From: a virus | Taxonomy: Duplodnaviria > Heunggongvirae > Uroviricota > Caudoviricetes | Strand: one strand, 5' to 3' | IMG/VR virus record: IMGVR_UViG_2711768053_000016 | Span: 1-12,722 of that record | DNA: 12,722 nt | In this document: positions 1-12,722 of the stretch, in pieces | How positions within the stretch are numbered: position 1 is the first letter of the stretch | How the letters are laid out: every line of letters starts with the position of its first letter | The notes under the pieces: generated by a model | Seen by the model: the letters and a program-made list of their open reading frames with translations, nothing else | Told to the model about the DNA's origin: nothing | Database searches by the model: none | Translations under genes and position numbers: made by a program

Positions 1-933
1 TCAGCCCTTAAACACGTTATAGCCGAGTTGCTTAGCGACCGATGCCACCATTTTTTGACCGCGAACACTGTTGCCTTCTTCGTCCAGCGGTGGTGAGAAC
101 GCGGCAATTCCCATCACGCCAGGGACGACCGCCAGAATACCGCCACCTACACCGCTTTTGCCCGGTAAACCAACGCGATACGCCCAGTCACCGGAGCGAC
201 CATACAGCCCTTCCATCATCATTTCGGCCAGAATGTACGGCACGTTGTCGGCCTGAAGAACGCGTTCATGCGTCAGCGGATTCACACCCCCCGCCGCCAG
301 CGTCGCGCCAAGTGTTGCCAGTTCAACAGTATTGAGGAGCGTGGAGCACTGACGGGTGTACACGTCACAGGCTTCCATTGCATCACAATAGAGATATTCG
401 GCGGAGTACAGCAGCCAGGCAATGGCCCGGTTATGGAAGTTGGTTGTTTGTTCCGACTGGTTGACTTCGTCAGAGAGCGCTACCTGCTCACCAGCCAGTT
501 GCTGTTGGATATGTAAAATTCGCTGCCAGCGTTGTTCAACATTTTCAGCGTTAATCAGGCTGGTGGTGGCAATGGCGCCAGCATTTACCAGTGGCGAAAG
601 CGGTTTGCCGCCATGCAACTCTAAGGCGATAACTGAGTTAAAGGGCAATCCGGTCGGGTCAGCGCCAATTTTGTCCTGTACCGCCTGCGGGCCGACATCC
701 TCTAACGCAAGGGCTAACGTACAGACTTTCGAGATGGATTCCAGCGCAAAGCGGTAATCACTATCACCCGCGCGATAGATGTTGCCATCGCAGGTCACAA
801 TAGCCACTGCTGCCAGTTGACTAGGTACATTCGCCAGAAAGGGAATGTAGTCGGCATTTTGTCCGCCGTTAAGTGAGTGAAATTGGGTGTAAGCCTGATC
901 CACTGCCTGCTGTAATTTGTTTGCATCTAACAT
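1..933 (-). CDS. glsA: Glutaminase (serine-dependent, beta-lactamase-like fold), complete; stop codon at window bases 1-3
   Basis: 310-aa ORF; I recognise the protein as E. coli YbaS/GlsA1-like glutaminase from memory, including the S-x-x-K nucleophile motif (ESISKVC) and the C-terminal GLPGKSGVGGGI segment. GC-rich host-like composition. Confidence 0.9.
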   Translation of the reverse strand: MLDANKLQQAVDQAYTQFHSLNGGQNADYIPFLANVPSQLAAVAIVTCDGNIYRAGDSDYRFALESISKVCTLALALEDVGPQAVQDKIGADPTGLPFNSVIALELHGGKPLSPLVNAGAIATTSLINAENVEQRWQRILHIQQQLAGEQVALSDEVNQSEQTTNFHNRAIAWLLYSAEYLYCDAMEACDVYTRQCSTLLNTVELATLGATLAAGGVNPLTHERVLQADNVPYILAEMMMEGLYGRSGDWAYRVGLPGKSGVGGGILAVVPGVMGIAAFSPPLDEEGNSVRGQKMVASVAKQLGYNVFKG

Positions 934-1156
934 CTTTTGTTAACTCCTTTTTATAGATGCGGGAGGTAATTCCTCACCCCGGTGCCGATTTTCAGGCATC
1001 TTGATTTAACTTAGCACCCGCAACTTAACTTCAGGAAAACAAAGAGATAAATGTCTAATCCTGATGCAAATTGAGCCAATTTTTTAATCTTTACGGACTT
1101 TTACTCGCCTGGTTTATTAATTTCTTGACCTTCCCCTTGCTGGGAGGATCTCAATA

Positions 1157-1182
1157 GGCGCAGTACCGTAACATACTGCGCC
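1157..1182. other. Perfect 9-bp inverted repeat (GGCGCAGTA-n8-TACTGCGCC) just downstream of the integrase stop
   Basis: Seen directly in sequence. Lies in the glsA-int intergenic region where attL and/or the int terminator are expected; no U-tract follows on either strand, so function is uncertain. Confidence 0.4.
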
Positions 1183-1201
1183 AATTCAACATTTTACAGA
1201 C

Positions 1202-2224
1202 TTAACTACCCTCTAAAATCCCCACTTTGCCTCCAAAGTGTGGACACAATGTGGACATTCCTACAAGAGGATTATAATTCACTGCATCCAATAAATAATC
1301 AGGTGCAAAATGAGCATATGTCATTGTTTGTGAAATATCTGCGTGACCAAGAATTCTTTGTAACGCAATTATATTCCCGCCCTTCATCATAAAATGAGTA
1401 GCAAACGTATGACGCAATGCATGAGCTGCCTGACCATCAGGTAAATTAGGTTTTGCCTCTTTCATTTTTAAACGAAAAGTTTTGTAACTCACACGAAAAA
1501 GTCGACCAGATTCTCGATGCCTTACAATATTTACAACCTCCTCTGAAATGGGAACAACTCGCCGGTCGCCATTTTTTGTAAGCGTAAATATCACCCTATT
1601 ACCCACAATATTTTCCGCTTTGAGCTGATAAGCCTCACCCCACCTCGCACCAGTTGCAAGCAAGAGAACAGCAATCCGGAAATAATCACCAGTGCATAAG
1701 GATAATAACCGCTTAACCTCAGACTCGGTAAAGTAAGACATCTCAGTTTTTGGCTCTTTTAAAGCAGATATTGCCTCTACAGGATTATCCCCATGAAACT
1801 CATCGATCTCAGCCATCGCCTTAAACATACCGCTCAGAGCAAAAAGATCATGGTTAATCGTTGAAGCCTTTATACCTTGCCCCAATCTATATGCCCGGTA
1901 TTCGATAAGGCATCGACCATCAATCTGATAAATCATGGGATCCCCCATATCCTGGCAAATACAGCTTAACGCACTAAGCCTACGATTAGCGTAGTTCTTA
2001 TTACGTCCAATGAGCTGCCACCACAAAGCGATAAACTCACTCAGTCGCCGCTTGTCTGCAGGACGACTCAGGTAGTCATGGTTCTGATACTTTGCAATGA
2101 TGCTTCGTTCAAAAGCATGCGCCTCCGCTTTTCTCTCAAACTTCCGCCGGATACGCTTTCCGTCGCGCCCGCGCGGCCTTACATCCACTTCATAGCGACC
2201 ATCTTCGAGCTTCTTAACAGACAC
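1202..2224 (-). CDS. int: P2-type tyrosine integrase (site-specific recombinase)
   Basis: Recognisable similarity to P2 Int N-terminus (KKLEDGRYEVDVRPRGRDGKRIRRKF) and tyrosine-recombinase catalytic signature (GARWGEA ... HALRHTFATH ... LGHADISQTMTYAHF). Maximal ORF begins at ATG 2254; I prefer the GTG at 2224 because GGAGGG lies 7 nt upstream and the product then aligns with the P2 Int start. Confidence 0.9.
   Translation of the reverse strand: MSVKKLEDGRYEVDVRPRGRDGKRIRRKFERKAEAHAFERSIIAKYQNHDYLSRPADKRRLSEFIALWWQLIGRNKNYANRRLSALSCICQDMGDPMIYQIDGRCLIEYRAYRLGQGIKASTINHDLFALSGMFKAMAEIDEFHGDNPVEAISALKEPKTEMSYFTESEVKRLLSLCTGDYFRIAVLLLATGARWGEAYQLKAENIVGNRVIFTLTKNGDRRVVPISEEVVNIVRHRESGRLFRVSYKTFRLKMKEAKPNLPDGQAAHALRHTFATHFMMKGGNIIALQRILGHADISQTMTYAHFAPDYLLDAVNYNPLVGMSTLCPHFGGKVGILEGS
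1239..1257. repeat. Tandem direct repeat TGTGGACA-caa-TGTGGACA (11-bp spacing) inside the 3-prime end of int; candidate arm-type Int binding sites
   Basis: Repeat seen directly in sequence. Its role as arm sites is inference from P2-like attP architecture, where Int arm sites lie next to the int 3-prime end. Confidence 0.35.
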
Positions 2225-2293
2225 AAGAAGTCCCTCCAACAGTCTGTTCACCATCCTGAAAACAAATGGTGAAAATGTAATGTTTATAAAGCG

Positions 2294-2593
2294 TTAACCA
2301 ATCTGTTTCCCGGAGGGGCCAGATTGTGTTGTCTCTGGCCCAGTGTGTGCAAGAGCCGGGGCGATCTGACCTCGGCTAGGGTCTATACGGTCATACATGA
2401 ACCAATCTTGATACTTATGGAAACGGGGATGACCAAAGAGTTTGATCGCAGCCTCCAATGACATTTTCGCCTTGCCTAGCTCATAACCGTTGTACGTACC
2501 ATAATTTACACCAATCAAATCAGCAACTTGCTTAGATTTAAGGCGTTCTGAATCTCGGATTAACTGTAGTTTTTCATGTTGTGGTATTGACAT
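2294..2593 (-). CDS. P2 C-type immunity repressor (99 aa)
   Basis: Same length as P2 C and recognisable similarity (ADLIGVNYGTY..YELG, GQIAPALAH). Located between int and the divergent early operon as in P2. Confidence 0.8.
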   Translation of the reverse strand: MSIPQHEKLQLIRDSERLKSKQVADLIGVNYGTYNGYELGKAKMSLEAAIKLFGHPRFHKYQDWFMYDRIDPSRGQIAPALAHTGPETTQSGPSGKQIG

Positions 2594-2717
2594 AATATGT
2601 CAGATCTCTCATTGTATGCATCAATTGACACTCGCAAGCGGCGTTGACCGCTCATAACACCAAGGGCTTGCTTAGCTAAACATGCCTCAACAAGCCTCAA
2701 GCAGTGGAGTTTATCAA
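2594..2717. promoter_or_regulatory. Lysis/lysogeny switch region between C and the cox-like gene (expected Pc/Pe promoters and C operators)
   Basis: Position by analogy with P2/186. Contains TTGACA (2625-2630), a second TTGAC 19 bp downstream, and on the minus strand a TACAAT about 18 nt upstream of the C start. Exact promoter and operator assignments are not resolved. Confidence 0.5.
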
Positions 2718-3179
2718 ATGAAAGAAATGCGAGAAAACGAATTAAATATGGAAACTCATTTTTTACGTCAGTTCCCGCTAGACAACGGACGAGCTCTGCG
2801 TACCTGCAAAATGACAGAAACACAAGCTGCGCGTATCAGAGACATCAGCCTAGAAGAGCTACAAAAACAAATCTTCGCCACTCCGGAAGAGTTTGCTTAT
2901 CTAACTGGTCGCACCCTCAAATCGGTGCGCAACCTGATGGATCGTGCGCAGGTGCCAGTTCATAGAGAAGGCATGCCCGGGTCAAAGCGCCCTAAACGCT
3001 TCATCATGTTGCAAGAATACTGGAAAGCTGTTGCTCATTGCCGCGCTCTCATCACTCCAGAAGAAAAACACTACATTGATCGTCTGATGCGTGACAAGAA
3101 GACTTATCGCCGCACAACCGGTAAAGAGCATCGAGTTCTAAAACGCAATAGCATCAGTGCACTGCAGGCAGGACTATAA
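2718..3179 (+). CDS. Cox-like DNA-binding regulator/excisionase with a C-terminal extension (153 aa)
   Basis: First gene of the rightward operon. GGAG lies 8 nt upstream of ATG 2718 (the track ORF starts at ATG 2682). The pattern FAYLTGRT..VRNLMD..PV..EYW resembles P2 Cox (FAKLIGKS..VRRMID..PV..EYW), but the protein is longer than P2 Cox. Confidence 0.55.
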   Translation: MKEMRENELNMETHFLRQFPLDNGRALRTCKMTETQAARIRDISLEELQKQIFATPEEFAYLTGRTLKSVRNLMDRAQVPVHREGMPGSKRPKRFIMLQEYWKAVAHCRALITPEEKHYIDRLMRDKKTYRRTTGKEHRVLKRNSISALQAGL

Positions 3180-3181
3180 AC

Positions 3182-3595
3182 ATGAATACTGATAGCACAG
3201 CTAAAGCGCTACTGGAACGACTGGAAACCCTGAAAAACGAAAAACCACACCAGAAGCTTTTGCTGGTTTTTCCGGGCAAACCACAGGTTGAAATCAGCAT
3301 TGACTACCACGAATTACACAGAACGTTCGCTGACCTGATGGCATTTAAATCAAAGCTTCAGAATGGCGAAGATTTGAAAAATGTCACCCTACGTCCCGAC
3401 GATGAATACGGTCATTTTTGTCGAGATGACGTCAAAGAGACGATTGGAATGATTTTAGAACCAATATACGGCGTTGCGCTCCGTTTTCCCGCCAAAGAAG
3501 TCTTTGAGCTTTATCGACAAATTTTAAGCAGTGACAACATGGTTATTGAGGTCGGAAATGTGCCAGAGAAAATCTCCGGCACGGGAGTTAAATAA
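3182..3595 (+). CDS. Hypothetical protein (137 aa), early operon
   Basis: ORF begins 2 nt after the cox-like stop on the same strand. No recognisable motif. Confidence 0.6.
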   Translation: MNTDSTAKALLERLETLKNEKPHQKLLLVFPGKPQVEISIDYHELHRTFADLMAFKSKLQNGEDLKNVTLRPDDEYGHFCRDDVKETIGMILEPIYGVALRFPAKEVFELYRQILSSDNMVIEVGNVPEKISGTGVK

Positions 3596-3778
3596 TCACT
3601 CAGGGAAAGTCCATGTACTTGCCTGAGGATATTTTTCCAACGTGAGCTTACGCACTTCGTGCATAAGCTTACGAATGGTATTTGATGGCTCTCCTTTATT
3701 CGGAGGATTAACCGGCGCTTTCTCTAATACATAAATTGCCGCATTTAGCGCATCAATAACCTTTTTATCATAGGACAT
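3596..3778 (-). CDS. Hypothetical small protein (60 aa), oriented against the early operon
   Basis: ORF with AAGGA 7 nt upstream of its ATG on the minus strand. Its stop abuts the stop of the 3182..3595 gene (convergent, no spacer). No recognisable motif. Confidence 0.45.
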   Translation of the reverse strand: MSYDKKVIDALNAAIYVLEKAPVNPPNKGEPSNTIRKLMHEVRKLTLEKYPQASTWTFPE

Positions 3779-4281
3779 ATTTTATTCCTTTGTGGTTGGT
3801 TGAACACGCGCCCTTTACAGCCCCTTCAAGACTGCGGGCGGTGGAAAAATACCACAAAACCATGCGCCGGGCATGGCTAAAACCCGGCACAAATTCGCAA
3901 CAGCAGCAGGATATTTTTGTATGAAGCAACGACGTAATTCTTCACAGCAACGCTTCCGCAACGGGGCGGAACGCCACGCTAACCGTTTCGCTACCAGTGC
4001 ATCACGCAGCAGCTCTCGCTACAGCCTGAGTGATACACACGCAACGCCGGATGGCTACCCAGTAAAACAAATCGGCGAGCATGCCTAGCTGATTGAGAAA
4101 GCTGGAATCGTGGTCCACAAATGCCCACGCAATCCGCTTACCGGAAACCGCATTTTTGCATTGAGCTGCGGCGACAATCAGTTCGGGCAGGATTTCACAT
4201 TATACGAAGCACTTCGCACGGTTGATCGTCTGCTTCGCGGACAAAGTTTTATTAAACAGGTTGATTTATAACAGGTGATTT

Positions 4282-4560
4282 ATGACCAAAGAGTATGCAC
4301 AAGGTGTATTTATCCGTTTTATTGATTTTCGCGGTGAACTGTTATTACGCGCATCAGCCATTGACGGAGTTGTTCCATCCGAAAAAAACGCAGCTACTTA
4401 CGTTTATCTGAACGGTACGCGCCTGACTGTGGAGCTTCCGTACCAGACCGTACGAGAAATCATTAGCGAAGCTGAAAAGGCACGTCAGATTAATAGCGAT
4501 GAACCATACATCGAAATTATCTGCATGGATTCAAAAGCAGAAATCCAGAAGGCAGATTAA
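4282..4560 (+). CDS. Hypothetical protein (92 aa)
   Basis: ORF with AGGTGA immediately upstream; first gene after a roughly 500-bp non-coding gap. Confidence 0.6.
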   Translation: MTKEYAQGVFIRFIDFRGELLLRASAIDGVVPSEKNAATYVYLNGTRLTVELPYQTVREIISEAEKARQINSDEPYIEIICMDSKAEIQKAD

Positions 4561-4571
4561 AGGACGTTGCA

Positions 4572-4814
4572 ATGGACCAGGAATACAAAACTCTCGTCAA
4601 TAAAGCACTTGAGCGCTTTCATTTTCGCTTAAACACGTCAGGCCCCCACGCTGAACACGCAGCCCATGATTCATTAGCGAGGGCTATCAGAAGTCTTTAT
4701 GACGTAGCTTTTTACGCTGACGATTTGGATGCGATTAACGAGCTTTCCGAACTCGTCTGCGCCGCAGAATGCGGAGAACGCATTGAACCGTATAAGCTGG
4801 GGGATATCGCATGA
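4572..4814 (+). CDS. Hypothetical protein (80 aa)
   Basis: ORF with AAGGA 8 nt upstream, 11 nt after the preceding stop. Confidence 0.6.
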   Translation: MDQEYKTLVNKALERFHFRLNTSGPHAEHAAHDSLARAIRSLYDVAFYADDLDAINELSELVCAAECGERIEPYKLGDIA

Positions 4815-4924
4815 GTATATTTATCTCATGGCTTGTTCTGATTATTTCGGTGGTCTGCGCCATTGGGATTATGCGAATTATTCATTCAGTAAAAAAGATT
4901 GAACGTTTTTTCTCTGATGAATAA
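4811..4924 (+). CDS. Small hydrophobic peptide (37 aa, MSIFISWLVLIISVVCAIGIMRIIHSVKKIERFFSDE), predicted single TM helix with basic C-terminus
   Basis: Not in the supplied ORF track (too short). ATG overlaps the upstream stop (ATGA) and GGGGGA lies 7 nt upstream. Hydrophobic run of about 20 residues. Confidence 0.4.
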   Translation: MSIFISWLVLIISVVCAIGIMRIIHSVKKIERFFSDE

Positions 4925-5017
4925 CGATACAAATAAAACATCAAATTAAATAAGAAAACGTGAAAACCATCCGTATTAACGGAGGTATTCGCACACGCAA
5001 ATAACGGAGATATAAAA

Positions 5018-5428
5018 ATGCACGCAAAAGAAGAAGGTATCATCAGTGCACTGAAAGAAATTTCAAAGATGGAAAGCGAAGTAGCGAAAAAAGCCGTAGC
5101 AAATGATCATATAGACATCGCTACCCACGCAATGATAGTCACAAAAGTCACGGCAGAAGCCGCCAAAATCATCGAAGAACAGGGTGCGGAACTTACGCTT
5201 TTCAAAACTCAACCAGTCACCGGACTGGATTTATCTAACACCGGACGTCTTATTTACACAATTGGCTCGGAGCTACAGCGATACACCATTATCGCCGGAT
5301 TACAGGACAAATACCTGATCACTCCTCACCCCATAAGAGAATCAGAAATTCTGACAAATCTCCGCCTGATAGAGCGCTCTCAAGTTGCATTCATTGATGA
5401 CGCACAGCACACCGTATTTAACGCATAG
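5018..5428 (+). CDS. Hypothetical protein (136 aa)
   Basis: ORF with GGAG 8 nt upstream, after an AT-rich spacer. Confidence 0.6.
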   Translation: MHAKEEGIISALKEISKMESEVAKKAVANDHIDIATHAMIVTKVTAEAAKIIEEQGAELTLFKTQPVTGLDLSNTGRLIYTIGSELQRYTIIAGLQDKYLITPHPIRESEILTNLRLIERSQVAFIDDAQHTVFNA

Positions 5429-5451
5429 GGTTATTGGACAAAGGGGGCGCA

Positions 5452-5655
5452 ATGGCAATTAAGCATTTTCCCGTCGTTCGCTTTACCTCCAGAGGGCGCG
5501 AATACGAGGTCGACGAACGCCTGATTACAACTATCGACAAACATCGTTCGGAAAAGGATGCACACCACATCTACCTCACTGACGGCACTTACTTCTGCGC
5601 CACTAATGTGGTGCGGGTGAACCTTATCCGACAGGTACAAGAGTCACGCAGATGA
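5452..5655 (+). CDS. Hypothetical protein (67 aa)
   Basis: Track ORF begins at TTG 5434; I prefer ATG 5452, which has GGGGG 5 nt upstream. Stop overlaps the next start (ATGA). Confidence 0.5.
   Translation: MAIKHFPVVRFTSRGREYEVDERLITTIDKHRSEKDAHHIYLTDGTYFCATNVVRVNLIRQVQESRR
5617..5655. repeat. 39-bp direct repeat, copy 1 (GTGAACCTTATCCGACAGGTACAAGAGTCACGCAGATGA)
   Basis: 33 of 39 positions identical to copy 2 at 5999-6037. Both copies encode a C-terminal ..RQVQES.. tail and end in an ATGA stop/start overlap. Confidence 0.7.
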
Positions 5656-5918
5656 CCATTCTGGACTATATCGCTACTCATCCGGGTTGTAGCGGCGGAG
5701 AAATCGCCGCAGCACTGAATACTCCAACCACAGCCATTAATGCTGAGTTACGCCGACTTTGGCGCAGCGGCTTAGTCATCAGAACAAACCGCAGCACAGG
5801 TGGTCACGCTCGCAAAACAGGAGGCCGGGCTTCTTACCACGTAAACCCGATGCCGTTCGGGTGTGGCAACCCACTAACCCACATGTTTAACCAGCTACTG
5901 AAGGAAGCCAGAGCATGA
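5652..5918 (+). CDS. Putative winged-helix DNA-binding protein (88 aa)
   Basis: N-terminal pattern LDYIATHPGCSGGEIAAAL....AELRRLWRSGLVIR is typical of small wHTH regulators. Start and stop both overlap neighbouring genes. Confidence 0.5.
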   Translation: MTILDYIATHPGCSGGEIAAALNTPTTAINAELRRLWRSGLVIRTNRSTGGHARKTGGRASYHVNPMPFGCGNPLTHMFNQLLKEARA

Positions 5919-6037
5919 GCACCATCAACCACCAGGAACCACGCGAACTGACGACTGCCGTACAAAGAATGTCTACCCAAAAATCACTGCCATTCCGTGT
6001 GAGCCCTGTCCGACAGGTACAGGAGTCACACGGATGA
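5915..6037 (+). CDS. Small ORF (40 aa), possible remnant or duplicated gene tail
   Basis: Not in the ORF track. Its last 12 codons are copy 2 of the 39-bp repeat; translationally coupled on both sides. Could be non-functional. Confidence 0.3.
   Translation: MSTINHQEPRELTTAVQRMSTQKSLPFRVSPVRQVQESHG
5999..6037. repeat. 39-bp direct repeat, copy 2 (GTGAGCCCTGTCCGACAGGTACAGGAGTCACACGGATGA)
   Basis: See copy 1; spacing between copies is 382 bp. Confidence 0.7.
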
Positions 6038-6252
6038 ACAGAAGGAGAATTACACGCAGACATCGCCGCACACGCCTGAGCTCCCCGCCAACACTAAAGG
6101 AACTCATTCAAAGCGAGATCGGTGATTTCTTCGCTGGGTTTGGATCACCTGGCGAACCAGAAACACCAGAAGCGATGCAGCGCGAACTCATGATGCGCAT
6201 CGATAACGTTTTTGACTTTTTCCTGAATAACAAAAGAGAGCAACCGACATGA
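6034..6252 (+). CDS. Hypothetical protein (72 aa) with arginine-rich N-terminus (MNRRRITRRHRRTR) and acidic C-terminal half
   Basis: ORF translationally coupled upstream and downstream. The Arg-rich motif suggests nucleic-acid binding; this is inference only. Confidence 0.55.
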   Translation: MNRRRITRRHRRTRLSSPPTLKELIQSEIGDFFAGFGSPGEPETPEAMQRELMMRIDNVFDFFLNNKREQPT

Positions 6253-6452
6253 ACGAAAGGACCTGGTTTCGCGCATACATGTGGGCGCTGGTATGCGCCC
6301 TCTTTTCTCTCATTCTGTATGCAGGACTACTCCCCCGAATGATTTCATCAGACAGCTCCTTCCTGGTATTGCTGGGCATTTTCATTGCCATGCTGTACCC
6401 GGCAGGCGTTGTTCGCCTTTTCAGTAAGTACATCAAGGAAATCAAACAATGA
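6249..6452 (+). CDS. Small integral membrane protein (67 aa, two predicted TM helices)
   Basis: Two hydrophobic segments (WALVCALFSLILYAGLL and FLVLLGIFIAMLYPAGVV). Stop overlaps the start of the SPFH gene (ATGA). Confidence 0.6.
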   Translation: MNERTWFRAYMWALVCALFSLILYAGLLPRMISSDSSFLVLLGIFIAMLYPAGVVRLFSKYIKEIKQ

Positions 6453-7279
6453 AGAAATTCAAACTCTTTCAGATTCTCCCGCTTTTTGCCGCCATCCTGC
6501 TGGTTGGTTGCGATCGCGTTGAGCCAGGTAATGTGGGCATCAAAGTCAACAAACTGGGCGACGACAAAGGCGTCGGCGAAGTAGTTGGCGTTGGCCGCTA
6601 CTGGACAGGCTGGAATACAGAGGTTTACATCTTCCCGACCTTCAAACAAATGAAGACCTACGATGAGCCGTTCAGCTTTCAGATGAGTGACGGCACAACC
6701 ATCGGCTATCACATCGGTGTGGCCTACAAGGTTGATCCATCCAAAGTTACCACAGTGTTTCAGACCTACCGCAAAGGCGTGGATGACATTACCGACACTG
6801 ACCTGCGCCAGAAGATCGCCGATGCACTCAACCGACTGGCCAGCAAAATGACCACCGATAAGTTTATCGACGGTGGTAAGTCTGAACTGCTGGATTCAGC
6901 ACTTAAAGATATTCAGGAAGAGATGACCCCCATCGGCATTCAGGTCATGAGCCTCTCTTATGTCGGTAAACCGGAATATCCGCCAACCGTTATCGACAGC
7001 ATTAACGCCAAAGTCACGGCAAACCAGAAAACCCTGCAACGCGAACAGGAAGTCAAGCAACGCGAAGCAGAAGCCAACATGCTGCGCGCAGAAGCTGCCG
7101 GACAGGCTGATGCCATTCGCACAAAAGCCCAGGCTGAAGCCGACGCCATTCGTTTACGCGGTGAAGCTCTGCGCCAGAATCCCGGCGTTATGGAGCTGGA
7201 AGCAATCAACAAATGGAACGGCACGCTACCGCAATACATGACCAGCAATACCGCTGTTCCGTTTGTTCCGGTGAAGTAA
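6449..7279 (+). CDS. SPFH/band-7 (stomatin/prohibitin/HflKC-like) lipoprotein (276 aa)
   Basis: N-terminal signal peptide with lipobox LLVGC. SPFH-like entry motif (VEPGNVGIKVNKLG), followed by an Ala/Glu/Arg/Gln-rich coiled-coil segment (EAEANMLRAEAAGQADAIRTKAQAEADAIRLRGEA) typical of HflK/HflC-type proteins. Family assignment from memory of the domain signature, not a search. Confidence 0.75.
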   Translation: MKKFKLFQILPLFAAILLVGCDRVEPGNVGIKVNKLGDDKGVGEVVGVGRYWTGWNTEVYIFPTFKQMKTYDEPFSFQMSDGTTIGYHIGVAYKVDPSKVTTVFQTYRKGVDDITDTDLRQKIADALNRLASKMTTDKFIDGGKSELLDSALKDIQEEMTPIGIQVMSLSYVGKPEYPPTVIDSINAKVTANQKTLQREQEVKQREAEANMLRAEAAGQADAIRTKAQAEADAIRLRGEALRQNPGVMELEAINKWNGTLPQYMTSNTAVPFVPVK

Positions 7280-7285
7280 TTAAAC

Positions 7286-7330
7286 CCGGCCAGTGAAAAT
7301 CGCTGGCCGGAGCAGTATCAGGATTTTTTT
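7286..7330 (+). terminator. Hairpin (CCGGCCAG-n9-CTGGCCGG) followed 13 nt later by a T7 run; possible terminator of the early/cargo operon
   Basis: Perfect 8-bp GC-rich stem starts 7 nt after the SPFH stop. The U-tract is not immediately adjacent to the stem, so efficiency is uncertain. Confidence 0.4.
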
Positions 7331-7447
7331 AGCATGCCGTTCTCACAAAAAAACCGCTTGCCATGCCGCAATCAGTCAGGTTACATTTCCGCTGCACCTC
7401 ATAAAACGGGTGCCGGGTTTCGCAGCCTGCTGATCAACAAAGCGCAC

Positions 7448-7468
7448 AACCGCGCCAGCGGTTTTTTT
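7448..7468 (+). terminator. Compact hairpin (AACCGC-GCCA-GCGGTT) immediately followed by T7; intrinsic-terminator-like
   Basis: Seen directly in sequence. Lies in a roughly 320-bp stretch with no convincing coding potential. Confidence 0.45.
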
Positions 7469-7650
7469 GTGCGTACCGCATTGCCGCACATTTTTTCGCA
7501 TCAGAATTATGGTGGGGCGTACGGGGCCGACTTCGGTCGGGCCGGGTTTTCTTTGTTGACCGGTACTGCGAACCTCGTACGTCTCGCCACCCACAGTTTC
7601 GCAGCTCTGGATGGCGAGTATTTAAAACTTACCAACAAAGAGGCCACACC

Positions 7651-7881
7651 ATGGCAAACCGCAAACAGCACCGCGCTATCGCGGAGCGTCGTCACATCCA
7701 GACTGAAATCGATCGCAGACTCACCCGCGCTGCACACATCGCCTTTATCATGCAATCCAACACATTGCACAGACTCAACAGCACTATTTCAGCCGACTAC
7801 TGCGCCGCTGTATTCAGCTATCTGGCGGAAGACCTCCTGTCTCTTCAGGATCTCATCCAGCAGCAAAACAAACTCCATTAA
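7651..7881 (+). CDS. Hypothetical protein (76 aa)
   Basis: AAAGAGG lies 7 nt upstream of the ATG. Overlaps, in another frame, the long track ORF 7334..8320, whose upstream part I consider non-coding. Confidence 0.5.
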   Translation: MANRKQHRAIAERRHIQTEIDRRLTRAAHIAFIMQSNTLHRLNSTISADYCAAVFSYLAEDLLSLQDLIQQQNKLH

Positions 7882-7954
7882 TCCCTGTTCCGGGCCTTTC
7901 CTGCACCTTGCGGCGGGAGGCCTTCGCACATCTGTAGTAAAGAGGATTGCCGCA

Positions 7955-8320
7955 ATGATTCTCGCCAACGACTTTCTTGAATACCTGCTCAACACAGAGC
8001 GTGATCTTGCCGTTCGCGTGCGTGACCGTTATGACATGTACCTGAAATCCCTGCCCGCACCGCAGCTCGCTGACGGAAAAATTGTTATTGATGGTCGCTA
8101 CATGATTGACAGCCACGAGGGGAATTACAGGCTTTACCGCATTGAAGGCGGCACCCCGTCCGTTATTGGCATTTACCAGCGCCCATCCTCTGCGATCGTC
8201 GATGTGATTGCCGACAGCATCCGCATCACACACCACCATGCCGACACAGAAGACACTGTGCTGGAGATTCAGCGGCTGGCTGCCGTTTGCCGTGACACTC
8301 TGAATGGCATGACGAAGTAA
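7955..8320 (+). CDS. Hypothetical protein (121 aa) immediately upstream of the replication gene
   Basis: Internal ATG of the track ORF 7334..8320, with AAAGAGGA 9 nt upstream. Ends 6 nt before the gpA-like start. Confidence 0.55.
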   Translation: MILANDFLEYLLNTERDLAVRVRDRYDMYLKSLPAPQLADGKIVIDGRYMIDSHEGNYRLYRIEGGTPSVIGIYQRPSSAIVDVIADSIRITHHHADTEDTVLEIQRLAAVCRDTLNGMTK

Positions 8321-8326
8321 ATCAGT

Positions 8327-11149
8327 ATGACGACAGAGTACATCAGGGACTGGCAACAACCGCGCCACGCAGTAGGACGTGAAGGAACGGAGATCCCCGC
8401 ACCTGAATCCGCACTTTCCTCCTGGCTGGATGCCTACCGGGCAGAGAACGAACGCCGCCAGGAAATGGCTGATGCGGCGTTCTCCGCCACACCGCTGGGC
8501 AACCTGATTAATAAAAGCCTGGACGCACAGGAAAAACAGGACAAAACCATCACACTGGCAGGAGACGCCAGAAAGCAGGCACGCGGCGCGGTGGATGAAG
8601 CCATGGCCTCGCTGCGCCTGCTGCCGTCCTATCTGCGCGATCCGCTTATTCGCCACCTCTCCTTCCTGCGCAAAAAACAGGAAGCTGATCGCCGGAAAGG
8701 CAAAAAGAGCTGGCAGGCTGAACGCTACGCGCGCGGAACCCTGCGCAAAATATTCGAACGCCTGGACCGCACCGACCACCGCTGGCTGACACCGGGTTAT
8801 CGCTCCCTTGCCGGACGCGAACGCCTGGACGATTTGCTTTACCTGCCGCAGCTCAACAAACACCAGATACAGACGCTGGCCACCATGACGGCGGCGATGT
8901 TCAGCAGCACCTTCGAAAAACTCTGCGATGGCTTTGGCGCGACCGATGGCGAACTGACCATGGATGTAACGCTGAAGGCGTATCAGATGCTGGCCCGCAT
9001 GGCGTTACACCTGCACATCATGCCTCCACATTATGACGCACTGACAACAGATAAAGACCGGAGGAACGAACCGGACACGGAGCTGCTGCCGGGCGCAATC
9101 CTTCGCCTGACCTGTGCGGAATGGTGGAAACGCAAACTGTGGCTGTTACGTTGCGAGTGGAGAGAAGAACAACTCCGCGCCGCCTGTCTGGTTTCCAGAA
9201 AAACATCACCCTATCTGAGCCAGGACGCGTTAAGCGAGTTTCGCGCACAGCGCGAGAAAACACGCGATTTCCTGAAAAGTTTCATGCTGGAAAATGAAGA
9301 CGGGTTCACGATTGATCTCGAGACAGTGTATTACGCGGGAGTAAGTAACCCGGTTCACCGTAAGGCAGAAATGATGGCCACCATGAAGGGACTGGAACTT
9401 CTGGCCGAAGCCCGTGGCGACAGAGCGGTGTTTCTGACTGTCACCTGCCCGTCAAAATACCACGCAACAACGGAGAACGGTCATCCGAACCCCAAATGGA
9501 ACGGGGCCACCATGCGCGACTCCAGCGATTACCTGGTTAACACGTTTTTTGCGGCGGTCCGCAAAAAACTGAACCGCGACGGCCTGCGCTGGTATGGCAT
9601 CCGCACGGTGGAGCCTCACCATGACGGCACCGTGCACTGGCATATGATGGTCTTTGCTCATCCGGAAGAAATCGACAGCATCGTGGCCATCACCCGCGAT
9701 ATTGCCATTCAGGAAGACCGCCACGAGCTGGGCAATGATATTACTCCGCGCTTTAAGGTGGAGTATGTCGACGGCTCCAAAGGCACACCAACCAGCTATA
9801 TCGCGACCTACATCGGAAAAAACCTGGACAGCCGCGCCGTGGATGGCATCGACCCGAAAACGGGCAAGCCACGCGTTGACCACGAAACCGGAAAATCAAT
9901 GGCCGAGAGTGTGGAACGCGCCATCGGCTGGGCGCGCCTTCACCGAGTCCGCCAGTTCCAGTTCTTTGGCATCCCCTCCCGTCAGGTATGGCGTGAACTC
10001 CGCCGCCTTGCCAGCCAGATGGCACGCAACCCGGAAGGCCCACAACGGCTGAAGGATGATGCAATGGATGCGGTACTCGCTGCCGCTGATGCCGGGTGTT
10101 TTGCCACCTACATTGAGAAACAGGGCGGCGTACTTGTTCCACGCAAAGACTACCTGATTCGCACCGCCTACAACCTCGCAGATGAGCTGAACGATTACGG
10201 CGAACAGAGCGTACAGATTTACGGGATCTGGTCACCACTCATCGGGGAATCCTCCCGTGTGTGCACGCACCCGGATAACTGGAAGCTGGTAAGACGTAAA
10301 CCGGAAGCGGAAGACAGCACCCGCGAAAATGGTTTTGACCTTCAGGGCGGCCCTGCCGCCCCTTGGACTCGTGGCAATAACTGTCCCCGTGTACAGGAAA
10401 CGGACAACAACGGGACAGAACAGCCGGAAGAACGGCCAGCACCGTGGCCGCAGCTCCCTGACGGCGTTGAAGTGAACGAATGGATGCGCTCACTGAAACG
10501 GCACGAACGCCGGGCGCTGATGCGTTCGCTTCGTGCCAAACAGGCAAAAAACAGCAGTGATGAAATGCAGAGCTGGACACAGAGCCACAAACAGCAGCGG
10601 CCTTTGCCTGATAACCACGAATTACTCGCTAAAGAATGGCGGGAATCTGCCGAATCTCTCGGCCTGCATATCGGTGAACAGCAGATGCAGCACCTGTTAC
10701 GGGGCGGCAGCCTGTACGTTGACGGCAGCATCATTGCACCGCAGGGATTTGAAATTGTACGCAAACCGGATACCCGCCCGGACAGCCGAATCACGCAGCT
10801 CTGGCAGCGCCTGAGCCGTAATCACGGCGTAAGCAGCACGGAGATCCGCCATAACCCGGTCGCCAGCTATCTGGAACAGCTGGGGGCATCAGACCCCGAA
10901 GCCGCCGCACGTCTGGCATCCACACTTCAGCAGGACCAGAACACCATGAAAACCCCCGTTACCGTGCTTTCTGACATGCTGCGCGCCATCCGTGACGCAG
11001 AGCACGCACAGAGAATCAGTGAAACCACTGAACGCGCCCACCGCAAAGCAGACCTGCTGCGGGGTAGCCTGACCAGTGGAAACAAAAAACAGACAGAAAC
11101 GGGATTCACAAATCCCGTAAATGAGCAAAAAACGTGCCGCGATATATGA
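8327..11149 (+). CDS. P2 gpA-family rolling-circle replication initiator (HUH endonuclease), 940 aa
   Basis: Rolling-circle initiator motifs in order: AVFLTVTCPSKYH (motif 1), HDGTVHWHMMVF (HUH, His437/His439), and SYIATYIGKN with two tyrosines 4 residues apart (Tyr491/Tyr495). Position at the end of the early operon matches P2 gene A; the protein is longer than P2 gpA. Confidence 0.85.
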   Translation: MTTEYIRDWQQPRHAVGREGTEIPAPESALSSWLDAYRAENERRQEMADAAFSATPLGNLINKSLDAQEKQDKTITLAGDARKQARGAVDEAMASLRLLPSYLRDPLIRHLSFLRKKQEADRRKGKKSWQAERYARGTLRKIFERLDRTDHRWLTPGYRSLAGRERLDDLLYLPQLNKHQIQTLATMTAAMFSSTFEKLCDGFGATDGELTMDVTLKAYQMLARMALHLHIMPPHYDALTTDKDRRNEPDTELLPGAILRLTCAEWWKRKLWLLRCEWREEQLRAACLVSRKTSPYLSQDALSEFRAQREKTRDFLKSFMLENEDGFTIDLETVYYAGVSNPVHRKAEMMATMKGLELLAEARGDRAVFLTVTCPSKYHATTENGHPNPKWNGATMRDSSDYLVNTFFAAVRKKLNRDGLRWYGIRTVEPHHDGTVHWHMMVFAHPEEIDSIVAITRDIAIQEDRHELGNDITPRFKVEYVDGSKGTPTSYIATYIGKNLDSRAVDGIDPKTGKPRVDHETGKSMAESVERAIGWARLHRVRQFQFFGIPSRQVWRELRRLASQMARNPEGPQRLKDDAMDAVLAAADAGCFATYIEKQGGVLVPRKDYLIRTAYNLADELNDYGEQSVQIYGIWSPLIGESSRVCTHPDNWKLVRRKPEAEDSTRENGFDLQGGPAAPWTRGNNCPRVQETDNNGTEQPEERPAPWPQLPDGVEVNEWMRSLKRHERRALMRSLRAKQAKNSSDEMQSWTQSHKQQRPLPDNHELLAKEWRESAESLGLHIGEQQMQHLLRGGSLYVDGSIIAPQGFEIVRKPDTRPDSRITQLWQRLSRNHGVSSTEIRHNPVASYLEQLGASDPEAAARLASTLQQDQNTMKTPVTVLSDMLRAIRDAEHAQRISETTERAHRKADLLRGSLTSGNKKQTETGFTNPVNEQKTCRDI
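11099..11118. promoter_or_regulatory. Perfect palindrome ACGGGATT-caca-AATCCCGT (site 1), overlapping the last codons of the replication gene
   Basis: Seen directly in sequence. Near-identical site 2 lies 73 bp downstream, directly upstream of parM; candidate ParR operator or centromere half. Confidence 0.4.
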
Positions 11150-11171
11150 AGCGCGCACAAAACAGGCAAAA

Positions 11172-11191
11172 ACGGGATTTCAGAATCCTGT
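11172..11191. promoter_or_regulatory. Palindrome ACGGGATT-tcag-AATCCTGT (site 2), 35-54 nt upstream of the parM start
   Basis: One mismatch from a perfect palindrome. Flanks match site 1 (AAACGGGATT ... GTAAA). Position is consistent with a parC-like autoregulatory/centromere site. Confidence 0.4.
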
Positions 11192-11225
11192 AAACGATTA
11201 ATTAATCAACATAAGGAAAAGCGAC

Positions 11226-12185
11226 ATGAAAATTTGTATCGACGACGGCTCCACCAACATCAAGCTGGCATGGACTGAGAACGGCGAACGCCGCAACGCC
11301 ATCAGCCCGAACAGCTTCAAGTCGGAATGGTCTGCGCCGTTCGGTGGCACGCAGCCCGCGAACTACATGCTTGATGGCGTGCGCTATGGTTTTGATCCGG
11401 TCAGCGATCGCTTTGTCCAGACGACCGACACGCAATACCAGTACAGCGATGTGAATGTCATTGCCATTCATCACGCGCTGGTCAAATCAGGCATCACGCC
11501 ACAGGAGGTGGATGTGGTTGTCACCCTGCCACTGAGCGAGTATTTCGACACAAACGCACAACCGGACATGGCCAACATCAACCGCAAAAAAGCGAACGTT
11601 ATGCGCCCGGTGGAGTACCAGAACGGCGAGGCATTCACTATCCGTAACGTGCGGGTTATGCCTGAATCCATTCCGGCTGGCTTTAAAGCACTGGCTGACA
11701 TGAGTCCGTTTGAATCCCTGCTGATTGTGGATTTGGGCGGAACCACGCTGGATGTGGCAAAGGTTCAGGGGCAACTGGCAGGTATCAGCCAGGTGTTTTG
11801 CGATCCACACGTAGGCGTTTCTCTGATGGCCGGTGCCGTGCTGTCGGTGATGGCCACCAACGGTATGCGTACCAGTCACCACATCGCTAATACCATTATC
11901 GAACATCGCCACGATGAAGCCTGGCTGCGCCAGCACATCCACAATAACGCACATTACGCCAGCCTGATGGCAGTTATTCGTGAAAAGGAGGAAACACTGA
12001 AACAACGCGTGATCCGCGCGCTGGCGGGTTTTTCGGGTTACGGGCGGGTGATGGTTGTAGGTGGAGGAGCGGAGATTGTGGCACCCGCTATCCGCGAAGC
12101 CTGCGGAGTTAATGCGACTTTCATCGCGGACGGGGTGCCACAGTTTGCTCTGGTTAATGGGCTGTACGCAATGGATAAGGAGTAA
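11226..12185 (+). CDS. parM: Actin-like segregation ATPase, ParM/StbA family (319 aa)
   Basis: Recognisable similarity to plasmid R1 ParM (from memory): MKICIDDGSTNIKLAW (phosphate-1), VMPESIPAG, LIVDLGGTTLD (phosphate-2), VMVVGGGAE (adenosine motif). AAGGA RBS upstream. Confidence 0.85.
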   Translation: MKICIDDGSTNIKLAWTENGERRNAISPNSFKSEWSAPFGGTQPANYMLDGVRYGFDPVSDRFVQTTDTQYQYSDVNVIAIHHALVKSGITPQEVDVVVTLPLSEYFDTNAQPDMANINRKKANVMRPVEYQNGEAFTIRNVRVMPESIPAGFKALADMSPFESLLIVDLGGTTLDVAKVQGQLAGISQVFCDPHVGVSLMAGAVLSVMATNGMRTSHHIANTIIEHRHDEAWLRQHIHNNAHYASLMAVIREKEETLKQRVIRALAGFSGYGRVMVVGGGAEIVAPAIREACGVNATFIADGVPQFALVNGLYAMDKE

Positions 12186-12189
12186 ATCA

Positions 12190-12504
12190 ATGACGACACC
12201 AACCAGACGGATAAGTTTCTATCTGAAGCCCGCCGTCGTCAAGAGCGAACGGGAGGCGTGCAGTTACCTCGACAGCCTGCCAGCCTCCGAACGCAGCCGC
12301 GCACAACGCGCGGCTTTTCTGGCCGGACTGGCTCTTATAAAACGCATCCCCGCGTTGGCGTATTCGCTGGCAGAATGGTCAGAAGACGAAATAAGGATGC
12401 CACCGCTACCAGTACAGCCTGAAAAACCGGCGCAACCAGCAGCAGACTGCGCCCCCCATATGCAGCAGGTGAAGAAGAATATTCAGGCGTTTTTTCCGAA
12501 GTGA
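12190..12504 (+). CDS. parR: ParR/StbB-family centromere-binding protein (104 aa)
   Basis: N-terminus RRISFYLKPAVVKSEREACSYLDSLPASERSRAQRAAFLAGLAL parallels R1 ParR (RRTIAFKLNP...DTLDSIPQGERSRLNRAALTAGLAL, from memory). ATG 12190 has AAGGAG upstream and sits 5 nt after the parM stop; the track's longer ORF (12061) would overlap parM and is rejected. Confidence 0.75.
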   Translation: MTTPTRRISFYLKPAVVKSEREACSYLDSLPASERSRAQRAAFLAGLALIKRIPALAYSLAEWSEDEIRMPPLPVQPEKPAQPAADCAPHMQQVKKNIQAFFPK

Positions 12505-12518
12505 AAACAGGAGTAACT

Positions 12519-12722
12519 ATGTCCACCATTACCAAAGAATGGTTACAACGTAAAATCACAGAGTTTAAATCGTGGCGCGAAGACATCCCGTTCGGTCTTG
12601 ATGAAGACGATCACAATATGTTAATCGCACTGGAAATCGCACTTGCATCACTGGAAGCAGAGCCAGTGGCATGGATGCACGCAAATAATCCTATTGGAAT
12701 GCCGGCGATAACAAGAAGTAAA
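12519..12722 (+). CDS. Hypothetical protein, 5-prime portion only (68 codons; continues beyond window)
   Basis: ATG 12519 with GGAG 8 nt upstream; open to the window end. No recognisable motif in the visible part. Confidence 0.5.
   Translation, partial: MSTITKEWLQRKITEFKSWREDIPFGLDEDDHNMLIALEIALASLEAEPVAWMHANNPIGMPAITRSK

Follow-up and report, generated by a model that had tools for sequence, protein, structure and literature searches.

The mosaic joints of tailed phages are viewed, following Hendrix and Hatfull, as products of illegitimate recombination that were kept by selection for function. Deletion can be mediated by direct repeats some 40 bp long, and coupling of translation through an overlapping stop and start (ATGA/UGAUG), with a ribosome-binding site held in a hairpin that is opened by the upstream ribosome, is classic in Escherichia coli operons and in RNA phages. 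Template-switch mutation at quasipalindromes has been documented in E. coli (PMC7202029) and was described as a source of mutation clusters (PMC9435742). The locus considered here lies in a viral DNA stretch of 12,722 nucleotides (positions 1 to 12,722 of IMG/VR record IMGVR_UViG_2711768053_000016; hereafter the window), in which two direct repeats flank a winged-helix gene in the early operon of a prophage related to phage P88. Comparison with relatives makes it very probable that the two copies are the footprint of one unequal illegitimate crossover between two early-operon variants of P88-like prophages.

A search of the window yielded one repeat family, with copies at 5614–5658 and 5996–6040 (37 of 45 nt identical, 82%) at a spacing of 382 bp and no further copies elsewhere in the window. 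The 39-nt core (5617–5655 versus 5999–6037, 33/39 identical) was the top off-diagonal ungapped match of the whole window, scoring 21 (+1/-2) as compared with 12–19 (median 13) in 30 dinucleotide-preserving shuffles. On its own this test excludes chance only modestly, and the homology of the two copies is settled by the comparison with relatives. All genes of the locus lie on the forward strand. Copy 1 (5614..5655) consists of codons 55–67 and the stop of g67 (5452..5655), an early gene of 67 amino acids, and includes a Shine-Dalgarno-like AAGAG and the ATGA overlap that starts the winged-helix (MarR-like) gene, wHTH (5652..5918, 88 amino acids). Copy 2 (5996..6037) is a duplicated g67 tail and carries the Shine-Dalgarno sequence of the next gene, g72 (GGAG, 6022–6025), together with the ATGA overlap at its start. 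The two copies share one reading frame (..IRQVQESRR and ..VRQVQESHG, each followed by the stop), and both end in an ATGA stop/start overlap (5652–5655 and 6034–6037). Between them lie wHTH and an open reading frame (ORF) of 40 codons, ORF40 (5915..6037), which has ATGA overlaps at both ends and whose final 13 codons are copy 2. The initial annotation had described these repeats, their RQVQES tails and ATGA ends, the wHTH-like gene between them and the tail of the 40-residue ORF in the same terms, and the repeat search, direct reading and Pfam hits (MarR_2, E = 4.5e-7; HTH_24, E = 1.6e-5; both passing the cut-offs) agreed with it.

Among relatives, three natural arrangements of the region were found. 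In the P88 type, g67 is followed by wHTH and a full-length Ead/Ea22-like gene of 99–104 amino acids, and the repeat sequence is present as a single copy at the end of g67; most relatives are of this type, for example P88, 705R2, Shae, P884B11 and E. albertii. In the Chuche type, g67 is joined directly to g72 via ATGA, with one copy and without wHTH, as in phage Chuche, E. coli 2022S01-140-18, E-1246 and ETEC1734, and Salmonella enterica s1. In the window type, both copies are present. The region was found in 1317 of 5426 complete E. coli genomes, and the window-type junction in 16 of the 5426. A Chuche junction query was covered in 182 complete E. coli genomes; window-type genomes can match this query as two joined pieces (two such rows were listed), and subtraction of the 16 left about 166 Chuche-type genomes. 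Most of the remaining E. coli genomes with the region matched only up to the wHTH side, and a repeated E. coli search with the junction of contig L107 returned the same 16 genomes without additional junction variants. Thus, the fusion of a 5452–5655 homologue directly to a 6034–6252 homologue with a single repeat copy, which the initial annotation had suggested looking for, does exist in Chuche, in these 166 or so E. coli genomes and in Salmonella and Hafnia prophages. The Hafnia prophages are diverged (g72 61% identical), and so is a contig from run ERR163868 (L119; g72 83% identical over the aligned 72%); both join g67 to g72 via ATGA, with no trace of wHTH or of the Ea22 N-terminus.

A species census by g67 alignment scan of genome contigs returned only three loci (E. 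albertii, Salmonella and a 'Vagococcus' contig), the family being too narrow for such a census, and a set of 80 IMG/VR loci, biased to g67 alleles identical to that of the window and devoid of any Chuche-type locus, was used for tail sequences only. The 'Vagococcus' locus (L023, in a record titled Vagococcus sp. WN89Y) has a g67 homologue that shares 99% identity with the E. coli type and is followed by a truncated wHTH gene, and its presence in a contig labelled as Gram-positive is probably due to contamination or a mislabelled assembly.

The point at which the two parental arrangements meet is sharp. When window positions 5890–6120 were used as a query against complete E. coli genomes, P88-type genomes matched query positions 1–108 and Chuche-type genomes 107–231, so that the nearest relative switches at window 5996/5997: homology to the P88 type reaches as far as 5997, and that to the Chuche type sets in at 5996, the first position of copy 2. 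To the left, the window is 93% identical at the DNA level to 705R2 over 5400–5997, a stretch that takes in g67, wHTH and 81 nt at the start of the Ea22-like gene; over 5890–5997, more than 1000 E. coli genomes are 82–86% identical to it. On the right-hand side, g72 matches the Chuche-type strain 2022S01 at 212 of 215 positions (98.6% from 6038 on). The breakpoint (5993..5997) falls on a CG common to codon 29 of the Ea22-like gene (CGC, in ..GCA TTT CGC GCA ATG..) and codon 55 of g67 (CGG, in ..GTG GTG CGG GTG AAC..); these 2 nt stand at matching positions of the two codons, which keeps the product in frame. The Ea22-like side (..CATTTCGCGCAATG) and the g67 side (..GTGCGGGTGAAC) have only the CG in common, with no extended homology at the joint. 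An abrupt switch of nearest relative, two parental arrangements found independently of each other and mere microhomology at the breakpoint are together what characterises a mosaic joint.

The same joint is present in every window-type sequence, namely the 16 E. coli genomes (the junction having been read directly in four of them: SC418, E200139, EC21Z-048 and JNE151685), eight IMG/VR contigs, one metagenome contig and contigs L106 and L107. Variants at the junction are most conservative in L107 (..CCA TTT CG/T GTG AAC..), while L106 and the JNE151685 lineage (L114) have GTG CGA at that point; a T stands where the g67 tail has G at the junction in every lineage sampled. The joint occurs in differing backgrounds, with 81- or 88-residue wHTH alleles at its left and different genes downstream, and therefore had a single origin and then spread.

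In the proposed event, a parent of the P88/705R2 type (g67, wHTH, full Ead/Ea22-like gene) would have recombined out of register with a parent of the Chuche type (g67, then g72), joining Ea22-like codon 29 (TTT CGC) to g67 codon 55 (GTG CGG) at the CG in frame. The final 42 nt of g67 would thereby have come to be present twice, copy 2 arriving together with g72 as a g67 tail complete with ribosome-binding site and ATGA overlap. In the g67 tail, a Shine-Dalgarno-like GGAG stands 8 nt before the ATG; this motif and the ATGA overlap serve whichever gene comes next, and an in-frame joint upstream of these signals would keep the chain of overlapping ORFs. As judged from the alignments, the repeats are the product of the crossover and not its substrate. 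The duplication did not come from recombination by short homology between the 39-bp copies. The initial annotation had envisaged a cassette inserted at the junction by short-homology recombination, and nothing was found to suggest that the junction had been reused for module shuffling, another of its proposals. Its idea of a scar left at a gene junction by cassette insertion held in so far as a recombination scar does lie there; the inserted segment is not a self-contained, repeat-bounded cassette, as P88-type homology crosses wHTH, runs 81 nt into the next gene and stops where copy 2 begins.

The opposite direction of change was also weighed, with the window type as ancestor, the repeats as substrates and the Chuche type arising by deletion between them. 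Repeats of this length can mediate deletion, and where the 3' half of copy 2 is still ancestral (L107 and L114), loss of the DNA between it and copy 1 would yield a g67 tail of ordinary appearance. However, g67 and g72 are adjacent via ATGA, without a trace of wHTH or the Ea22 N-terminus, in the far more diverged Hafnia and L119 prophages, and because of this the 'empty' g67–g72 arrangement is considered old and not a recent deletion product. In addition, the Chuche arrangement is about ten times commoner in E. coli, no copy-2-specific base was present in the four Chuche-type junctions examined, and a window type formed without a Chuche donor would need both duplication of the 42-nt tail and about 75 nt of new sequence inside the Ea22-like gene. 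An origin by deletion is therefore improbable, and a cross of P88 type with Chuche type giving the window type is favoured by the old empty state, its roughly tenfold higher frequency and the complexity of any route without such a donor.

Two further explanations were considered. At a gene boundary, copy 2 forms an imperfect palindrome (the hairpin described below), and some relatives have the segment while others lack it, as might be expected if the repeats were sites of a dedicated cassette-insertion system (integron attC-like or otherwise site-specific) and wHTH a mobile cassette. This candidate was rejected as very improbable: no significant structure was seen in copy 1 or in about 100 other g67 tails, more than 1000 genomes have wHTH together with only one copy of the repeat sequence, the right breakpoint lies inside a gene and not at a repeat, the arm sequence CCGTGTGA is no commoner than chance elsewhere in the window, an Rfam search returned nothing above chance, and the prophage integrase (1202–2254) is the sole recombinase in the window. 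Alternatively, the similarity might reflect a conserved C-terminal peptide motif, RQVQES, of two unrelated proteins without any recombination, the alternative by which the initial annotation itself could have failed. The frame is indeed the same in both copies, but the match is at the DNA level and takes in the stop/start overlap, the protein tail of ORF40 differs by lineage (RQVQESHG, RRVQESHG, RQLQESHG, IQQAQESRR), copy 2 is read in another frame in two lineages, and the upstream part of ORF40 aligns as a truncated Ea22-like N-terminus; a shared motif is contradicted by these findings and hardly credible.

ORF40 itself is a relic of the crossover. It consists of 27 codons of Ea22-like N-terminus (5915..5995), the junction Arg and g67 codons 56–67, and its stop TGA overlaps the next ATG. 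The remnant 5915..5995 was identified by alignment with relatives, matching the first ~84 nt of the 99–104-residue Ea22-like genes of P88, 705R2, Shae and P884B11. The NCBI annotation pipeline PGAP marks the pieces as 'incomplete' or 'frameshifted' pseudogene fragments in SC418, E200139 and JNE151685, and labels the Ea22 remnant in SC418 and JNE151685 as 'incomplete, missing C-terminus'. ORF40 is intact in nine of nine distinct sequences of the window clade, and JNE151685 has a 42-codon version. In L106 (2501–2821) and L107 (2501–2776), the relic ORF has become fused to g72 through +1 frameshifts that arose independently within the Ea22 N-terminal remnant, in L106 by an extra T after codon 6 and in L107 by a net +1 in an indel-rich stretch that includes a lengthened A run; the fused ORFs (106 and 91 amino acids; proteins P0007 and P0018) read copy 2 in another frame.

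After its formation, copy 2 was remodelled. It is only 34/42 identical to the g67 tail of 2022S01, though the adjoining g72 is 98.6% identical, and its specific bases (CGTGTGAGCCCTGTCC...CACACGG) were seen in none of about 100 g67 tails (24 distinct), all of which keep the copy 1 sequence. A g67 allele naturally ending in the copy 2 sequence was not found when IMG/VR was scanned for GTGTGAGCCCTGTCCG, nor when IMG/VR and JGI metagenomes were scanned for the junction pattern; all true hits had the Ea22 N-terminal remnant upstream, and the others were chance matches in unrelated DNA. Compared with the consensus g67 tail, copy 2 has six differences (G5998T, A6003G, T6006C, A6008G, G6030A and A6032G), to which T5995C is added on the Ea22 side. 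In an inverted repeat formed by 5994–6009 and 6019–6034, all of these except A6003G (five of the six, and T5995C) create a Watson-Crick pair where there had been a mismatch or a wobble. The resulting predicted hairpin (5994..6034, forward strand) has 16-nt arms (9 bp, a 2-nt internal loop and 5 bp) and a 9-nt apical region, and its 3' arm holds part of the g72 Shine-Dalgarno sequence and the A of the g72 ATG.

The predicted minimum free energy of copy 2 is -30.2 kcal/mol as compared with -14.0 for the reconstructed ancestor. Its z score was -4.98, with none of 200 shuffles as stable, while six g67 tails gave z scores of -0.66 to +1.98 and copy 1 gave +0.12. None of 20,000 random sets of six substitutions reached the observed energy from the -14.0 ancestor (best random set, -28.7 kcal/mol). 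Opening of the g72 start (-14..+3) was predicted to cost 21.9 kcal/mol as compared with 5.2–11.9 at six other starts in the window and 2.3–4.6 in two Chuche-type relatives. Hairpin strength differs between junction lineages: JNE151685 (L114) has -14.0 kcal/mol with an ancestral 3' arm, L107 has -24.0, also with an ancestral 3' arm, and L106 has -13.1 with a derived 3' arm and a disrupted 5' arm. Such conflicting character states between lineages imply recurrent change or recombination. Copy 2 was read in four E. coli genomes (SC418, E200139, EC21Z-048 and JNE151685) and formed three strong hairpins and one weak one; 15 of the 16 junction-bearing complete E. coli genomes are not of the diverged JNE151685 type (90.2–91.1% versus 88.7% identity to L107). 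The strong hairpin is specific to the window's lineage, and its function is putative. As a terminator it was rejected, with no T run after it and no entry in the terminator scan list, and so was an arm acting as a repeated protein-binding half-site, being no commoner than chance in the window.

What the hairpin does might be read in two ways: it may be a selected gate on the g72 ribosome-binding site or, equally, a neutral outcome of quasipalindrome template switching. In the first case, the hairpin would bury the ribosome-binding site, and translation of g72 should be low unless ribosomes reading ORF40 melt the structure; ORF40 would be translated only as a relay that brings terminating ribosomes to the g72 start codon. 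The duplicated g67 tail would then have gone from scar to regulator, stepwise transitions having built a hairpin that locks the g72 ribosome-binding site, with g72 and the ATGA-linked membrane-protein and SPFH genes translated only via ORF40. We put this forward tentatively, as a rather doubtful proposal drawn from modelled structures.

In the second case, the hairpin would have no function and be a by-product of 'correction' of a quasipalindrome by template switching during replication, which we regard as quite possible, if short of probable. The g67 tail was already a weak inverted repeat (10/16 positions strictly complementary in copy 1, 11/16 with G-U wobble in the consensus) and free to be perfected in a relic ORF; nearly all changes raise complementarity, the six together with T5995C giving 14/16; the two changes in the 3' arm, at a distance of 2 nt, are to the bases complementary to the 5' arm; mutations of this kind are known in E. 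coli, also as a source of clusters, from the two reports cited above; and hairpin strength varies by lineage (-13 to -30 kcal/mol), as expected without constraint. However, both arms have changed, so that copying from the opposite arm would take no fewer than two switching events, together with two or three point mutations, the distributions of the characters across lineages conflict, and A6003G brings no gain in pairing. The three variable hairpin sites within the window clade (6013, 6015 and 6017) are confined to the 9-nt apical region, with none among the 32 arm nucleotides, which is weakly suggestive of constraint; by our own estimate about 1.75 variable sites would be expected in the arms, and the zero observed is not significant. 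The prevalence of genomes other than the JNE151685 type (15 of 16), with strong hairpins in three of the four copies read, likewise speaks against neutrality.

Several points weigh against the account of a crossover followed by recruitment of its scar. The direction of the event was inferred from parsimony and the age of the empty arrangement, and a Chuche-type junction would be restored without trace if the DNA between copy 1 and an unremodelled copy 2 were deleted, so that some Chuche-type genomes could be secondary. Local alignments gave no significant match between the first ~75 nt of g72 and the central part of the Ea22-like gene (shuffle p = 0.02–0.9), and the idea that this part is an out-of-frame derivative of the mid-Ea22-like gene, formed by deletion between two ATGA motifs, was therefore dropped. 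The strong hairpin is absent from L114, L106 and L107 and is thus not required for the arrangement to persist, and as L106 and L107 fused the relic to g72, the relay ORF is dispensable.

The downstream gene g72 (6034..6252, 72 amino acids) is a member of a conserved family. From about residue 20 to its end it aligns with the C-terminal half of Ead/Ea22-like proteins, and 35 database homologues were found, including a 71-residue Hafnia protein (61% identity) and a 70-residue one, each of which comes after a g67 homologue via ATGA. Neither ORF40 nor g72 had a hit to the Pfam family Ead_Ea22 (PF13935), and P88 gp10 itself scored 20.5 bits, under the 27-bit cut-off; the name 'ead/Ea22-like' is a database annotation only. 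The N-terminus of g72 (6034–6093) is Arg-rich (MNRRRITRRHRRTRL) and is kept in Chuche via synonymous Arg codons (AGA AGG AGA versus AGG AGA AGA). The conserved core, LK.LIQ.EI.DFFAGFGSPGEPETPE, was also found fused to unrelated C-termini (P0033 and P0035). PGAP annotates only the last 138 nt of g72, as a pseudogene fragment. In Salmonella enterica s1 (L025, ~2695–2900), the g72 homologue ends early after ..RIDNVF, and the usual ending (..DFFLNNKREQST) lies in another frame, which indicates a frameshift.

From ~3.9 kb on, the window represents the early (rightward) operon of a P88-like E. coli prophage (genus Xuanwuvirus, Peduoviridae, P2-like), 90–94% identical in this part to phages P88, vB_EcoM-569R5/705R2, Shae_phiSM and P88_4B11. 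In P88, the order is int, C, cox, several small ORFs, gp08 (67 amino acids), gp09 (wHTH), gp10 ('ead/Ea22-like', 104 amino acids), gp11 (membrane) and gp12 (SPFH lipoprotein), followed further on by a gpA-like replication endonuclease and ParM. The product of g67, the homologue of gp08, has 84–97% amino acid identity to homologues in P88, Chuche, 705R2 and others, and a Pfam search assigned it to no family. Downstream of g72 lie a membrane-protein gene (6249..6452, 67 amino acids, homologue of gp11), ATGA-linked to g72, and an ATGA-linked SPFH/Band-7 lipoprotein gene (6449..7279; Pfam Band_7, E = 5.7e-31), which ends the overlapping chain. By direct reading, ATGA overlaps occur at 5652, 5915, 6034, 6249 and 6449, all five preceded by purine-rich motifs, and link g67, wHTH, ORF40, g72, the membrane-protein gene and the SPFH gene without a break.

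Other parts of the window were looked at in passing. Positions 6509–7245, within the SPFH/Band-7 gene, are ~93% identical to a gene annotated as 'serine protease' in many Stx2-converting lambdoid phages, which makes it an accessory gene common to P2-like and lambdoid prophages. For positions 1–3900, with the integrase (1202–2254) and a 99-residue repressor-like ORF (2294–2593) on the reverse strand and the first rightward ORFs at 2682–3179 and 3182–3595, the phage collection gave no megablast match for any of these genes; P88-like homology begins only at ~3909, and the immunity and integration module is thus of another type than that of P88. A 42-nt direct repeat (11083–11124 and 11156–11197, 79% identical) has a small inverted repeat (AACGGGATT...AATCCCGT) in each copy; the first copy lies inside the last ~65 nt of the gpA-like replication gene (end, 11149), while the second stands between that gene and the ParM-like gene (start, 11226). 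From its sequence and position, this repeat is a candidate for a parC-like centromere or for two stem-loops.

Taken as a whole, the case is one of ordinary phage mosaicism, unusually well documented, and nothing in it overturns current understanding. It provides a clean natural example of mosaic formation in which both parents, a recombinant with an exact in-frame 2-nt joint and later derivatives are at hand, the latter including a remodelled hairpin and two independent frameshift fusions. Short direct repeats flanking a gene need not mark a mobile cassette, and automatic annotation splits such joints into 'pseudogene fragments', though the downstream g72 has a conserved family of its own. Only the hairpin might teach something new, be it recruitment of a scar for translational control or template-switch mutation in natural populations. 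If the change from scar to regulator were true, L114, L107 and L106 would form a natural record of a regulatory RNA structure assembled from a by-product of recombination, by selection or by template switching.

Set beside the known systems, the joint resembles phage mosaic joints in its sharp homology breakpoint with 2-nt microhomology, in the circulation of both parental arrangements in the same phage group, and in the survival of a recombinant that retains reading frames and translation signals. Unlike typical mosaic joints, it lies inside a gene and not at a gene boundary, it was formed out of register, leaving a 42-nt duplication and a relic ORF, and parents, recombinant and several later derivatives can all be sampled. 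The Ead/Ea22-like proteins (P88 gp10, YP_009113053) share their N-terminus with codons 1–27 of ORF40 and their C-terminal half with g72 from about residue 20 to the end, but g72 has an Arg-rich N-terminus of its own and belongs to a separate, older family that stands directly after g67.

As in classic translational coupling, stop and start overlap as ATGA at five consecutive junctions (5652–6449), and the g72 Shine-Dalgarno sequence and start codon are predicted to be occluded in a -30 kcal/mol hairpin inside the upstream ORF. In contrast to the classic cases, the upstream ORF is here a non-functional relic of recombination, the hairpin is recent and lineage-specific, and the coupling is a prediction. 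The likeness to quasipalindrome template switching lies in clustered substitutions that make an imperfect inverted repeat nearly perfect, with less remodelled states in other lineages; the difference is that both arms changed, that one change was not templated, and that the evidence is a pattern in natural populations and not a measured mutational event.

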